The notes beneath the pieces were generated by a model. The model did not search any database. It saw nothing but the letters and a program-made list of their open reading frames with translations, and was not told the DNA's origin. A stretch of 4,119 nt of DNA from a virus (lineage: Duplodnaviria > Heunggongvirae > Uroviricota > Caudoviricetes). The stretch lies in IMG/VR virus record IMGVR_UViG_2660238209_000014, one strand, 5' to 3'. How positions within the stretch are numbered: position 1 is the first letter of the stretch; every line of letters starts with the position of its first letter. Position numbers and translations under genes: made by a program. This document shows positions 315-3,977 of the stretch, one piece after another.

Positions 315-689
315 TTAATGATTAATTGATATTTTGTTGTTTGATTCAACTTTCCCATCGGATGTGTGATGCTTTAAATCACAGGAATTAATACTGCTCG
401 CTGTAAAATGATTTTCAAGGGGAGCTATTCGAATCCCTTTCTTTTTCATTAACAAGCCAAATCCTTTATTAATGATGTCCATTAATTCCAGGAAGTATTT
501 TTCATGTAAATCCTGGTTATCAGAGAGCTGCTTCTCTTCGTACAGACCGATAAAGGCACGACGCACGTTACCGGATATAGTATCGATGGTTTCTTTTTCT
601 ACGGTACTCAGGTCAAGAGTCGCCAGTTGAGAGCGAACCACATTCGATGCCATTTCCTGGAATGGTACTGGTAAATCTTTAAATTCCAT
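315..689 (-). CDS. hypothetical protein, second gene of the leftward two-gene cassette (124 aa from ATG at 689; 128 aa if the upstream ATG at 701 is used); no family recognised
   Basis: ORF track 315..701 minus. The ATG at 689-687 is preceded by GAGG with a 6-nt spacer (minus strand TGAGGTTGACGATGG); the ATG at 701 has no Shine-Dalgarno but overlaps the upstream stop (TGATG). Stop TAA at 317-315. The 3' half (about 321-540) is about 34% G+C by hand count, clearly lower than its neighbours. The C-terminal tail is low-complexity (Ser/Asn/His/Lys-rich). Confidence 0.55.
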   Translation of the reverse strand: MEFKDLPVPFQEMASNVVRSQLATLDLSTVEKETIDTISGNVRRAFIGLYEEKQLSDNQDLHEKYFLELMDIINKGFGLLMKKKGIRIAPLENHFTASSINSCDLKHHTSDGKVESNNKISINH

Positions 690-700
690 CGTCAACCTCA

Positions 701-940
701 TCAGTCAGTGTTTCTGGTTAACCAGCGACGCGCGCCAGCTTCAGTTTTAAACGTTTTGCTTCTGGTATACGTCATCGCGGTAAACGTGCCGTCCTGGTTG
801 GGAAACACGCCGTACACCAGAGATTCGTTGTTGCCAAGATCGATAGTATCCATGCTGACCTCATTTCCCCTTAACGCTGGGGTAGCGGAACTAAAAACCT
901 GCTGCGCTGTTATACAAAGTGTTCCCGCCGTCATGTTCAT
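701..940 (-). CDS. small hypothetical protein, first gene of the leftward cassette (79 aa longest form; alternative starts at 934 and 853, the latter giving 50 aa)
   Basis: ORF track 701..940 minus. GAGG lies 3 nt before the ATG at 940 and 9 nt before the ATG at 934. The internal ATG at 853 has the best ribosome-binding site (GAGG, 5-nt spacer). Stop TGA at 703-701 overlaps the next ATG. It sits just downstream (in the transcription direction) of an operator-like palindrome. No family recognised; a competing plus-strand ORF 708..983 has a GTG start and no RBS. Confidence 0.45.
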   Translation of the reverse strand: MNMTAGTLCITAQQVFSSATPALRGNEVSMDTIDLGNNESLVYGVFPNQDGTFTAMTYTRSKTFKTEAGARRWLTRNTD

Positions 941-1125: not shown

Positions 1126-1800
1126 TCAGTCTAAGTATTGATGTATTTGTGAAACTTTACCTTTAATGGTGTAACCACCATTCAGTTCGATGGGTTTGTA
1201 AAGCGGATTCAGTGACAACAGATAGATGTTTGGTCCGTCAATCGCAACTTTTTTTAGTGTTACGTTTGGCGTTCCTTCCAATTGGATTAAGATTATTTTT
1301 CCCACCAGTTCTCTAATGTTACTTGAGCATGGTGTGATCAGCACGGTAGATCCGTCGGGGATGGTTGGGAGGCCGTTAGAGTTTGTCATCGCATCTCCCT
1401 CAACATGCAATAAAAAAGAGTTTTCAGCGGTTTTTGTCATGACATCAACCCAATTCTTAATACCAGGAATCTCGGTTACTGGACAACTCATATCCCAATA
1501 ACCAGCCTGTTCCCACGTTAAAACGGGCAACCGGGCGATGTTGTCACTAATGTAAGGGTACTGATTCAGACGCAGATCATCGGCTTTATCGTGACCGTCC
1601 TTTCCATAAAGAATCCATTCAGGAGATTTGGAAAGCAATTTTGACAGTAGATACAAATTCTCACCGTCAGGTTTTGAAGAGCCATTTTCCCATTTTGTTA
1701 CGGATACACGAGATATGCCGATTGCTTTCGCAACCTGCTGTTGGGTTAATCCAACGTCTTTTCGACGATTCCGAATACGTTCGCTGATAGTGTTTTTCAT
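1126..1800 (-). CDS. cI: CI/C2-type prophage repressor: N-terminal XRE-family HTH plus C-terminal LexA-like (S24) domain, with Ala at the catalytic Ser position
   Basis: ORF track gives 1126..1842 (238 aa). I favour the ATG at 1800 (224 aa): that N-terminus (MKNTISERIRNRRK...) matches the start of P22 C2/434-type repressors as I recall them, and it places both operator palindromes and a consensus TTGACA in the intergenic region. HTH: LTQQQVAKAIGISRVSVTKWENG. Ala-Gly cleavage-site motif (WEQAGYW) present. The S24 motif reads VEGDAMT where LexA, lambda CI, UmuD and P22 C2 have G-D/N-S-M. Lys of the dyad is retained (VTLKKV). Tail LNPLYKPIELNGGYTIKGKV parallels lambda CI [20 protein letters not shown]. 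Confidence 0.9.
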   Translation of the reverse strand: MKNTISERIRNRRKDVGLTQQQVAKAIGISRVSVTKWENGSSKPDGENLYLLSKLLSKSPEWILYGKDGHDKADDLRLNQYPYISDNIARLPVLTWEQAGYWDMSCPVTEIPGIKNWVDVMTKTAENSFLLHVEGDAMTNSNGLPTIPDGSTVLITPCSSNIRELVGKIILIQLEGTPNVTLKKVAIDGPNIYLLSLNPLYKPIELNGGYTIKGKVSQIHQYLD

Positions 1801-1891
1801 GTAACCAATGTTACTACCAAGTGATGTTGCTATGGTTGACATTGTTATGTAACTATTGTTACCCTTCTACTCGAAATAACAGGAGAGTTTT
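1798..1891. promoter_or_regulatory. OR-type divergent operator/promoter region between the repressor and cro genes
   Basis: Two near-identical sites, ATGTAACCAATGTTAC (1799-1814) and ATGTAACTATTGTTAC (1847-1862), each a GTAAC-N4-GTTAC palindrome. Consensus -35 TTGACA at 1836-1841 faces rightward, with a weak -10 candidate TACCCT at 1860-1865 (18-bp spacer) overlapping the second operator. AGGAG at 1881-1885 lies 6 nt before the cro ATG. No Shine-Dalgarno precedes either candidate repressor ATG, so the repressor mRNA may be leaderless as for lambda cI from PRM. The leftward promoter hexamers could not be assigned confidently. Confidence 0.6.
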
Positions 1892-2107
1892 ATGTTCAAA
1901 GATGATGTTCTGCGCTATTTCAAAAAAAAGCGACTAGTAGCTGAGGCTCTTGGAATTTCACATGTGGCTGTTGTGCGGTGGAAAGCAGTTATTCCCAAAC
2001 TTCGCGCAATGGAACTGGATGAAATTACTAACGGTGAATTGAAATACAACCCAGAACTTTACAAGAAGCAGGATAGCACCTCAAACGAAGGAAAGAATGA
2101 TTCATGA
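1892..2107 (+). CDS. cro: Cro-like small HTH regulator (YdaS-like)
   Basis: 71-aa ORF with a good RBS (AGGAG, 6-nt spacer). HTH segment RLVAEALGISHVAVVRWK. Divergent from the repressor gene across the operator region. Its stop TGA (2105-2107) overlaps the next ATG (2104-2106) as ATGA. Confidence 0.8.
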   Translation: MFKDDVLRYFKKKRLVAEALGISHVAVVRWKAVIPKLRAMELDEITNGELKYNPELYKKQDSTSNEGKNDS

Positions 2108-2529
2108 AAATCAAGCATGAACACATCCGCATGGCGATGAATGTCTGGGCGCATCCGGACGGCGAAAAAGTACCGGCTGCGAAAATTACCAAAGCGTATT
2201 TCGAGCTGGGAATGACGTTCCCGGAACTGTATGACGACAGCCATCCGGAAGCCCTGGCCCGTAATACCCAGAAAATTTTCCGTTGGCTGGATAAAGACAC
2301 CCCTGATGCTGTTGAAAAAATGCAGGCTCTGTTACCGGCGATCGAAAAGGCGATGCCGCCTTTGCTGGTGGCCCGTATGCGCAGCCACAGTTCTGAATAT
2401 TACCGTGAGATCGTCGAACGGAGGGATCGGCTGGTGAAGGATGTCGATGATTTTGTTGCGTCAGCGGTTGTTTTGTATGACCAGATGAATCGCGGCGGCC
2501 CGGCAGGGAATGCTGTGGTGATGCACTAA
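2104..2529 (+). CDS. ydaT: YdaT-like protein (CII functional analogue; family formerly annotated as a putative toxin)
   Basis: 141-aa ORF, translationally coupled to cro. The N-terminus MKIKHEHI and the C-terminal ...VVMH end match my recollection of Rac prophage YdaT; its position right after cro is the cII position. Identity is from memory and needs a search to confirm. Confidence 0.75.
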   Translation: MKIKHEHIRMAMNVWAHPDGEKVPAAKITKAYFELGMTFPELYDDSHPEALARNTQKIFRWLDKDTPDAVEKMQALLPAIEKAMPPLLVARMRSHSSEYYREIVERRDRLVKDVDDFVASAVVLYDQMNRGGPAGNAVVMH

Positions 2530-2551
2530 AAGCACGGTGTTCGGGGGTTTT

Positions 2552-3514
2552 ATGAGCAGCAAGCTTCATGGTCTTGTCTGGGAAGGGTGCGCCTTCACCG
2601 GCATGATCTTATCCAGGGTGGCGGTTATGGCCCGTCTTGCAGACTACAGCAATGACGAGGGCGTGTCATGGCCTGCCATTGAAACTATCCGGCGTCAGAT
2701 CGGTGCAAGAAGTGAATCCACAGTGAAATCGGCTATTGCAGAACTGGCGAAAGAGGGCTGGCTGACGAAGGAAGAGCGTAAGGTCGGTGGGCGTAATGTA
2801 AGCAATATCTATCGGCTTAATGTGGAAAAACTCGAAGCAGCTGCTGCGGCGGCGCGTGAGTCATATAAACCGAAAAGAAAAATTAGCCCGGCAAAAAATG
2901 ACCCGTTAACAGTTGACCCGTCAAATATTGACCCCTCAACGGTTGACCCGTCAAATTTTGATGGATCAACTGTTGATAAAAAACTGCCGATTAGGGGGGC
3001 GATGATTGACCCCGATCCGTCAGTATTAAAACCTGATCCGTCAGATAAAAGATCTTCTTGTCCGGACGCTTCGCAACCGGACCCGCAGACGGCTGAACAG
3101 GATTTTTTAACCCGACACCCTGACGCGGTTGTGTTCAGTGCGAAAAAACGCCAGTGGGGAAGTCAGGAAGATTTGGTGTGCGCACAGTGGATCTGGGGAC
3201 GAATCGTGAGTCTTTACGAGCAGGCGGCCAGCGATGATGGCGAGATCACTAGACCGAAAGAACCCAACTGGACAGCATGGGCCAATGACGTTCGCACAAT
3301 GCGGATGCTGGATGGCAGAACTCACAGACAAATTTGTGAAATGTTTGGGCGTCTCCAGCGGGATTCGTTCTGGGTAAAAAACATCATGAGTCCGGCAAAA
3401 CTCCGGGAAAAATGGGATGAACTGGTTATCCGCCTGGGGCGTTCGCCTGCGCAGCGTTGCGTGAATCACATTTCTGAACCGGACACTGAAATTCCGCCGG
3501 GCTTCAGGGGGTAA
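2552..3514 (+). CDS. phage replication initiation protein (lambda O-like role; N-terminal winged-HTH DNA-binding domain, Pro/Asp-rich linker, C-terminal domain)
   Basis: ORF track 2537..3514 (GTG start). I favour the ATG at 2552, preceded by GGGGG with a 4-nt spacer (320 aa). N-terminal segment LSRVAVMARLADYSNDEGVSWPAIETIRRQIGARSESTVKSAIAELAKEGWLT has the pattern of phage replication-initiator HTH domains. The origin iterons lie inside the coding sequence and encode the repetitive linker DPLTVDPSNIDPSTVDPSNFDGSTVD, as lambda ori lies inside O. Confidence 0.85.
   Translation: MSSKLHGLVWEGCAFTGMILSRVAVMARLADYSNDEGVSWPAIETIRRQIGARSESTVKSAIAELAKEGWLTKEERKVGGRNVSNIYRLNVEKLEAAAAAARESYKPKRKISPAKNDPLTVDPSNIDPSTVDPSNFDGSTVDKKLPIRGAMIDPDPSVLKPDPSDKRSSCPDASQPDPQTAEQDFLTRHPDAVVFSAKKRQWGSQEDLVCAQWIWGRIVSLYEQAASDDGEITRPKEPNWTAWANDVRTMRMLDGRTHRQICEMFGRLQRDSFWVKNIMSPAKLREKWDELVIRLGRSPAQRCVNHISEPDTEIPPGFRG
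2899..2988. repeat. replication-origin iterons: tandem ~15-bp repeats, consensus TGACCCGTCAAnnnT (4 good copies, 2 degenerate), followed by an A-rich stretch
   Basis: TGACCC(G/C) begins at 2899, 2914, 2929 and 2944, an exact 15-bp period; degenerate copies begin at 2959 and 2974. Iterons 2 and 4 (and iteron 3 with one mismatch) contain an internal dyad TTGAC-CC-GTCAA. Related repeats GATCCGTCAG occur at 3014-3023 and 3035-3044, with an A/T-rich stretch at 2974-2990. Confidence 0.7.
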
Positions 3515-3554
3515 GTGTTAATTTCTGGTCATGAGGTAATTTTCAGGAGGGCTT

Positions 3555-3977
3555 GTGGCAAAAGTTTTTACACAAGAAGAGCAGGAGAAAATTAAAGGGC
3601 AGGTTGTTGAACTCGTACGCCAGAGTGGGCGCGAGACGTTACGACAACTGGAAACTAAAACTGGGGCAACAAGATATCTGATGAGCGTTCTGGCCAGAGA
3701 GCTGGTTGCCAGTGGCGATGTATACAACTCTGGTTACGGGTTATTCCCGTCTGAACAGGCGCGTAAGGACTGGCAAAATGCCCGTAAAAAGCTCTCAAGG
3801 GCAAAGCTGAAGAAACCATCTGCGGTTGATCCGGACCTTATCTGGTCATTACCTGACGGAGAAATACGTCGCTACGACAGGCGTCTGAACATAATCTGTC
3901 TCGAGTGCCGGAAGAGCGAAGTTATGCAGCGCGTACTGGCGTTTTATCAGGGGAATTTTGAGGAGGTGGTGCGGTGA
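3555..3977 (+). CDS. hypothetical protein (140 aa) immediately downstream of the replication initiator; function unknown
   Basis: ORF with GTG start at 3555 preceded by a strong AGGAGG (3545-3550, 4-nt spacer). Basic, Lys/Arg-rich; no family recognised. It sits where lambdoid phages usually carry a helicase loader or helicase gene but is far too small to be a DnaC/P/DnaB-type protein. Confidence 0.6.
   Translation: MAKVFTQEEQEKIKGQVVELVRQSGRETLRQLETKTGATRYLMSVLARELVASGDVYNSGYGLFPSEQARKDWQNARKKLSRAKLKKPSAVDPDLIWSLPDGEIRRYDRRLNIICLECRKSEVMQRVLAFYQGNFEEVVR

Follow-up and report, generated by a model that had tools for sequence, protein, structure and literature searches.

A 15-bp repeat array inside an O-like initiator gene as the probable replication origin of an Escherichia coli lambdoid prophage

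The 4,119-nucleotide stretch of DNA in IMG/VR record IMGVR_UViG_2660238209_000014, which we call the window throughout, is the immunity and early-right region of an E. coli lambdoid prophage. Its O-like replication initiator gene contains, between the codons of a DNA-binding domain and those of a C-terminal domain, an array of 15-bp repeats that is followed by a strongly conserved block of about 80 bp. These two elements, a candidate origin of replication, are the subject of this study, and their coordinates are collected with those of the neighbouring genes in Table 1.

The array is highly regular. Matches to TTGACNNGTCAA with up to 2 mismatches start at 2898, 2913, 2928, 2943 and 2958, a spacing of exactly 15 bp as had been claimed in an earlier note made from the letters of the window, and they carry, in this order, 2, 0, 1, 0 and 2 mismatches. 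The whole window holds 7 such matches where 2.15 are expected, a number reached by none of 200 shuffled sequences. Good matches are seen in units 2-4 and two mismatches in each of units 1 and 5; the centre of unit 5 is inverted (GG), and the sixth unit at 2972-2986 (GTTGATAAAAAACTG) has kept the left half-site (TTGAT) alone. The description given in the earlier note, four good and two degenerate iterons with the internal dyad TTGAC-NN-GTCAA, is therefore a fair one, with GG at the centre of unit 5 and only the left half in unit 6. Tandem Repeats Finder (TRF) reports a period of 15 over 2878-2961 with 71-73% matches, and a period of 30 fits better (80-84% over 2887-2976) because the spacer codons alternate between AAT-ATT and ACG-GTT. 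Read in frame, each unit makes up five codons and the array encodes NDPLT VDPSN IDPST VDPSN FDGST VDKKL; the frame and the repetitive linker peptide are as the note had them. The dyad could alternatively be read as TTGACCCGTCAA or as GTCAA-NNN-TTGAC. To the left of the array, the G+C fraction of positions 2860-2899 is 0.325.

We compared the locus with 80 loci from 80 Enterobacterales species (one genome each), 80 near-identical viral contigs and seven phage loci; the counts of period and conservation given below refer to 83 full-length relatives, made up of phages and one genome per Enterobacterales species. In these relatives the block to the right of the array is the part of the gene most conserved in nucleotides. 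Its top-codon frequency is 0.89 versus 0.52 in the N-domain (conserved residues of the same sequences), and its columns are mostly 80-99% identical, third codon positions included. The consensus, TTTTGACCCGTCAGAATCTGGnGGGGATCCGTCAGTAAAtTCAAAAcaaGATCCaTCAGATAAAAAACCTTCTTGTCCGG (window ~2990-3068), appears in the window as the order AGGGGGGCGATGA-TTGACCCC-GATCCGTCAG-TATTAAAACCT-GATCCGTCAG-ATAAAAGATCTTCTTGTCCGG. Two GATCCGTCAG repeats had already been noticed, and both are real and exact; what had been missed is that they belong to this larger conserved block. With up to 1 mismatch, GATCCGTCAG has 3 matches in place of 0.25 expected, and 3 matches were reached by 0 of 200 shuffles. The two copies are 21 bp apart in the window and 24 bp apart in most relatives, and each holds a Dam site and CCGTCA, the right half of an iteron. 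The half-site TTGACCCC is, in relatives of the sub-lineage to which the window belongs, part of a 17-bp palindrome, GGGTCAA-TGG-TTGACCC. Alternative C-domains start right after the block, which is presumed to be both the unwinding or loading region and the recombination joint to the C-domain.

A span of 91 bp (2964-3054) contains four GATC sites, and the two contained in the GATCCGTCAG copies are kept in almost all 83 relatives. Over the whole 4119-bp window GATC occurs 19 times where 15.7 are expected, an enrichment that is not significant. Control of the origin by Dam and SeqA is possible. The A-rich tract which the earlier note had placed after the iterons is present, although it is weak and only ~8 nt long (2976-2983). 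Flanking or overlapping the repeats are the three 30-bp stretches of lowest stability in the gene (2856-2886, 2953-2983 and 3024-3054), but their z values, only 1.7-2.0, fall short of those of intergenic AT-rich stretches in the window. An apparent likeness of the family block to the right arm of the lambda origin (CGTCAGAGAATTCTGGCG) was rejected, as the local-alignment score was reached by 116 of 500 shuffles.

The protein encoded by the gene belongs with the PHROG 391 / HTH_36 "O-like" initiators, which are often annotated as primosomal protein I; RefSeq labels it a "helix-turn-helix domain-containing protein". It matches PHROG 391 ("replication initiation O-like") over its full length (amino acids (aa) 1-320, E 2e-115), and Pfam finds HTH_36 at aa 25-71 above the gathering threshold (E 2e-6). 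The AlphaFold2 (AF2) model of the N-domain, with a predicted local distance difference test score (pLDDT) of 82, has helices at 3-15, 20-32, 43-50 and 55-67, a two-strand wing at 71-89 and a C-terminal helix at 91-105. Its closest solved folds, with template-modelling (TM) scores of 0.5-0.6, are winged-helix regulators of the MarR, ArsR and PadR types, most of which are known to be dimeric. The N-domain is thus modelled as a winged helix. It has no BLASTP similarity to the lambda O N-domain, and its Pfam matches are limited to HTH_36 and a weak DnaD_N match. The C-domain, in contrast, is homologous to that of lambda O, with 39% identity over 119 aa to lambda O aa 171-277 (E 5e-26). The array thus sits between a winged-helix domain (aa 1-105) and a lambda-O-like C-domain (aa 182-300).

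The initiator ends in a tail of 21 residues, AQRCVNHISEPDTEIPPGFRG, that is nearly identical to the extreme C-terminus of DnaT of the E. coli host; when the whole initiator was searched against PDB sequences, only this tail was matched, by the DnaT chains 2ru8, 6aep and 9zbt. About 50 of the 83 family members end in (I/V)PxGFR(G/S/T), on lambda-O-like and DnaD-like C-domains alike, and other tails of the family read WNxIWK..., HWNSPEAWENTL or the lambda-like NTDWIDG. From these sequences the DnaT-like tail looks like a portable host-interaction motif. No contacts of the extreme DnaT C-terminus were found in the 2026 preprimosome paper.

Table 1. Features of the window, with those of the initiator gene listed before the neighbouring genes
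Feature	Position	Strand	Basis
O-like replication initiator gene, 320 aa	2552..3514	+	Open reading frame and PHROG 391 match
N-terminal winged-helix DNA-binding domain, aa 1 to ~105, presumed iteron reader	2552..2866	+	Pfam HTH_36 and AF2 model
A-rich left flank, possibly two degenerate units (AAACCGAAAAGAAAA ATTAGCCCGGCAAAA)	2867..2896	.	15-bp register reaches back to 2878 at ~70% identity
Iteron array, six 15-bp (5-codon) units, dyad TTGAC-NN-GTCAA	2897..2986	.	TRF, motif scan, reading register
Nucleotide-conserved block, family-wide	2990..3068	.	Alignment of 83 loci
Solitary left half-iteron TTGACCCC, abuts first GATC	3006..3013	+	Read directly
GATCCGTCAG copy 1	3014..3023	+	Exact
GATCCGTCAG copy 2	3035..3044	+	Exact
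Most AT-rich stretch right of the iterons, GC ~0.33, candidate strand-opening site	3024..3054	.	dG z = 1.7, moderately unstable
C-terminal domain homologous to lambda O C-domain, aa 182-300	3095..3451	+	BLASTP
DnaT-like C-terminal tail, aa 300-320, ...VNHISEPDTEIPPGFRG	3449..3511	+	NCBIfam DnaT positions 159-179 of 179
phrog_6937 gene	315-701	-	
ydfA-like gene	701-940	-	
CI/LexA-type repressor	1126-1842	-	
cro	1892-2107		
cII-like (YdaT-family) gene	2104-2529		
DUF977/Ren-like gene	3555-3977		

The comparison with relatives, which the earlier note had suggested, shows that the array is a property of the family. Of the 83 relatives, 77 have a linker with a dominant period of 15, 30 or 45 bp and 2.5-9 units at the same position, and close E. 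coli relatives differ by the gain or loss of whole units, in frame. Within the units of the large B sub-family (unit matrix TCTGAC-nnn-TCAAAA), the fourfold-degenerate third positions 3 and 12, which belong to two Ser codons, hold 1.38 and 1.64 bits, and the middle codon is free to the extent that even its amino acid changes. Symmetry of the family matrix is seen at the pairs 1-14, 3-12, 4-11, 5-10 and 6-9. Codon choice in the linker is also biased relative to the N-domains of the same genes: TCA and TCT make up 50% and 33% of linker Ser codons versus 11% and 9%, and AAA makes up 93% of Lys codons versus 59%. In the sub-lineage of the window (Erwinia, Mixta, Edwardsiella, Morganella), both TTGACCCC(T/C)CAA and its reverse complement TTGAGGGGTCAA occur in frame, and the two orientations of this 12-mer encode different peptides, IDPS and VEGS, which suggests that what is selected is the DNA word rather than the peptide. 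The core TGACNNGTCA is found 18.2 times per kb in the linker versus 0.41 times per kb in 240 kb of flanks of the 80 loci, a 44-fold concentration. Such patterns favour the array being a cis-acting DNA element rather than a peptide repeat and, as read from sequence comparison, it is constrained as DNA beyond its coding need.

Several kinds of change were seen among the close relatives L089-L168. One 15-bp unit is missing from four loci, a 21-bp deletion has removed a GATCCGTCAG repeat from one, and several change the C-domain directly after ...SSCPD.

A sister gene offers an independent view of how the module is built. The C-terminal half of the window gene is 87% nucleotide-identical to that of phage HannyBb (mEp460-type), whose N-domain is unrelated to that of the window initiator. 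Where the window has the 15-bp array, HannyBb (locus L008) has five 23-bp repeats (CATCGGGTCAAAATGGCCTGATG) at 2346-2461, and where the window has the GATCCGTCAG pair it has another repeat pair, TACAGAGAATA / TACAGAGAATAnAA, with a distance of 24 bp, at 2466-2503. A period of 23 bp is out of frame, so the HannyBb repeats cannot be a peptide repeat. Among the relatives with 15-bp units, A-type N-domains pair with TTGA-type units and B-type N-domains with CTGA-type units. Across the sequences compared, the repeat type follows the type of N-domain, and the C-domains are exchangeable.

We consider it probable that the 15-bp repeats (2897-2986) and the adjoining block (~2990-3068) together form the replication origin of the prophage, within the part of its own initiator gene that codes for the linker. 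The earlier note had likened the arrangement to the lambda origin within O, and the likeness is borne out by the constraint on nucleotides, the family-wide presence of the array, the 44-fold concentration of the motif, its co-variation with the N-domain, the homology of the C-domain and the winged-helix N-domain. A functional origin probably includes the conserved block right of the array, and unwinding would most likely occur in the AT-richer part of this block, at ~3020-3055. In the mechanism that we propose, the N-terminal winged-helix domain would bind the 12-14-bp dyads (TTGAC-NN-GTCAA), probably as dimers. With a dyad every 15 bp, neighbouring sites would almost abut and would be turned by ~154 degrees around the helix, a figure that comes from arithmetic on the period. 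The packed nucleoprotein array, together with the isolated half-sites in the block (TTGACCCC and the two GATCCGTCAG), would distort the DNA, and this distortion could open the moderately AT-rich stretch at ~3020-3055. The lambda-O-like C-domain and the DnaT-like tail might then recruit the host helicase (DnaB with DnaC), a role that we assign to them in view of the lack of a loader gene beside O in the prophage. Initiator binding, dimer stoichiometry, the melting site, the route of helicase recruitment and origin activity are all inferred parts of the proposal.

Other explanations of the repeats need to be weighed. They might be no more than a low-complexity flexible linker (xDPSx) made by slippage and without any function in DNA, and indeed the period is divisible by 3, the number of units changes without loss of frame, and the peptide is rich in Pro, Ser and Asp, as many linkers are, with a free middle residue. 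We find this very improbable, since synonymous third positions hardly vary among genera whose N-domains have as few as 51% of their residues in common (median 78%), one DNA word is used in both orientations for different peptides, the sister gene type has its 23-bp repeats at the same position, and the units are dyad-symmetric. Just as improbable, in our judgement, is that the array acts mainly through DNA structure, as a cruciform or a single-strand hairpin (for example a site of primosome assembly or PriA entry), rather than through binding sites lined up along the duplex. The array does form an imperfect palindrome with 33-nt arms (2908-2940 / 2942-2974, 79% complementary); as single-stranded DNA it folds with z = -3.5, none of 200 shuffles being equally stable, and the DnaT-like tail of the protein would tie in with such a site. 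However, a long palindrome follows automatically from tandem dyad units, the units of the B sub-family are direct and the long-range palindrome is not conserved there, and the copy number varies freely.

It is also conceivable, though unlikely, that the repeats are protein-binding sites with a purely regulatory role, such as autoregulation by an in-gene roadblock, copy control by handcuffing or exclusion of related phages, and that opening and loading take place at a separate site. The nucleotide constraint and the co-variation with the N-domain speak for a cis-acting binding array and not for initiation as such, and the AT-rich tract next to the array is weak. Against a separate site, no other repeat cluster or iteron-like motif was found in the window or in the 3-kb flanks of 80 relatives. 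Moreover, the array sits where the lambda origin lies relative to the homologous C-domain, as does the array of HannyBb, and the most conserved DNA of the family comes directly after it.

Some points weigh against an origin at the array. The co-variation between N-domain and iteron rests essentially on two clades, that is, on one evolutionary event, and several close relatives are substituted in an arm of unit 3 (IDPST -> IAPST). A lambda-like 40-bp AT-rich region is absent, and there are only 30-40 bp at ~33% GC, with z of 1.7-2. DnaA boxes number 6 in the window versus 3.5 expected, which is not significant, and they are not clustered at the repeats. The stoichiometry of winged-helix dimers on the units is uncertain, because 7-8 bp between half-site centres and a site spacing of 15 bp are unusual for such dimers. 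Many of the prophages with this gene, that of the window among them, may be defective. Finally, in the literature searched we found no experiment that shows binding or initiation for this initiator family. The same literature yielded no description of the 15-bp repeat family or of its origin; an earlier description in the review of Weigel and Seitz 2006 ("Bacteriophage replication modules") is possible.

How the helicase would be loaded at such an origin is a question of its own. No P-, DnaC- or DnaB-like gene adjoins the initiator in this prophage; the next gene is DUF977/Ren-like and has no similarity to lambda P, and no loader gene is annotated downstream of the initiator at 9810-11500 of locus L001. 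The absence of P combined with the presence of a DnaT-like tail means that helicase recruitment must differ from that of lambda. The viable phages SfIV, YeP1, Flotzy, 733R5 and HannyBb likewise have no loader or helicase gene in the downstream stretches examined, and the module can therefore be a complete replication module. In phiP27, DnaC-like and DnaB-like genes follow a related initiator, and in record NZ_CP148542.1 (L170) a DnaC-like ATPase gene and a DUF1627 gene come after the same O allele. Either a loader gene is optional or it was deleted in this prophage.

The record NZ_CP148542.1 is itself curious. It is a circular "plasmid" of 15,977 bp with only prophage genes from the early-right region to lysis, including the same repressor/cro/O module; it has no typed replicon, and both the cII-like gene and O carry frameshifts. 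Whether as a circle of the lambda-dv kind or as an artefact of assembly or long reads, its origin is ambiguous, and we did not use it as evidence. A search of PLSDB for plasmids with the module as sole replicon gave no clean case; most of the matches are to prophages in large replicons or mislabelled chromosomes. A 15-kb match is an excised e14-like element.

We tentatively consider a wider possibility, which at present we think rather doubtful. O-like initiators of this kind might work without a phage loader, their C-terminal 17-21 residues mimicking the C-terminus of host DnaT and feeding the melted origin to the host primosome and the DnaB-DnaC pathway. The invariant ~80-bp block with its two GATC-containing half-iterons would then be dedicated to melting and loading, perhaps with Dam methylation and SeqA as a gate, and the variable 15-bp array would set only specificity and strength. 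If this is true, a phage origin hijacks the replication-restart machinery and no loader of the lambda P type is used. The DnaT-like tail in the absence of a loader gene may be the more interesting lead on how the host helicase is recruited.

The surroundings of the initiator gene are those of a lambdoid prophage. About 94% of the window is matched at ~98% identity in chromosomes of the Shiga toxin-producing E. coli (STEC) type, such as NZ_CP027312, where the matching prophage adjoins ompW. The gene preceding the initiator (2104-2529) is assigned to the "toxin YdaT family" by Pfam and RefSeq and described as a "CII-like transcriptional activator" by PHROGs (E 3e-47); a regulator of the cII type would fit its position and its PHROG match at least as well as a toxin. 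Three perfect palindromes GTAAC-N4-GTTAC are found at 1038-1051, 1801-1814 and 1849-1862, one downstream of the repressor gene, one just within its 5' end and one between the starts of the repressor and cro genes. With up to 2 mismatches this motif has 6 matches versus 1.4 expected, a count reached in 1 of 200 shuffles, and the palindromes are probably the operators of this immunity type. A spacing of N5 in the palindrome was wrong, and N4 is correct. Internal promoters and terminators were sought in 2500-3600, and none were found.

The analysis locates the probable origin and the module for initiator specificity of a type of prophage replication that is widespread in Enterobacterales: the module is present at one locus in each of ~80 species, in several phages of Shigella, E. 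coli, Klebsiella and Yersinia, and in STEC prophages. It would be a natural case of dual coding, with a protein linker and a DNA-binding array on the same bases, and the 5-codon period would let the origin gain and lose sites with the gene unbroken. The module could be tested as a minimal replicon and could serve as a marker for the replication and incompatibility types of prophages.

Phage lambda is the closest model for this arrangement. In both, the repeats separate the DNA-binding N-domain from the C-domain within the initiator reading frame, every repeat has dyad symmetry, the C-domains are homologous, and the gene follows cro and cII-like genes in the early-right operon. The spacing does differ, as the earlier note had claimed in setting 15 bp against 18-19 bp in lambda; the latter figure, however, needs correction, since the four annotated lambda iterons are 18 bp long and their starts are 20, 24 and 23 bp apart, so that 15 bp should be compared with ~22 bp, and in the window the units abut. 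Lambda also has a strong 40-bp AT-rich region, which we read in the lambda sequence and of which the window has a weak equivalent, as well as a P gene next to O, a tail of its own and an N-domain without detectable similarity, whereas the window has no P and a DnaT-like tail. Iteron replicons of plasmids (RepA, pi, RepE) carry their iterons outside the rep gene; these are 17-22 bp long, are phased at ~22 bp and are accompanied by DnaA boxes and an AT-rich region. The repeats of the window, in contrast, are in-gene and 15 bp apart, and matches to the DnaA box do not significantly exceed chance.

For lambda, P22 and L, it is accepted practice to infer an origin from repeats within a gene (PMC8022706). 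The gene 18 of phage L has six imprecise 11-bp repeats and that of P22 has four repeats of ~20 bp, and their products are distantly related ori-binding proteins, each with its own repeats in the coding region, as in the window (PMC8022706). They differ from the window in the sequence and period of the repeats and in that the initiator is paired with a DnaB-type helicase (gene 12), whereas the window has no helicase or loader gene. The O/ori variants of Shiga toxin (Stx) phages likewise belong to lambdoid prophages of pathogenic E. coli and have origin iterons bound by the O protein; their replication regions are reported to be highly similar to those of lambda (PMC7466680), whereas the window has an HTH_36 N-domain and another repeat geometry. 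The mEp460/HannyBb type shares with the window, besides the C-terminal half, the DnaT-like tail and the downstream DUF977/Ren-like gene, and it differs in its N-domain and in the 23-bp repeats that replace the 15-bp array. The prophage of the window very probably provides a further example of the well-known lambda-type in-gene origin, with an unusually tight spacing of 15 bp.

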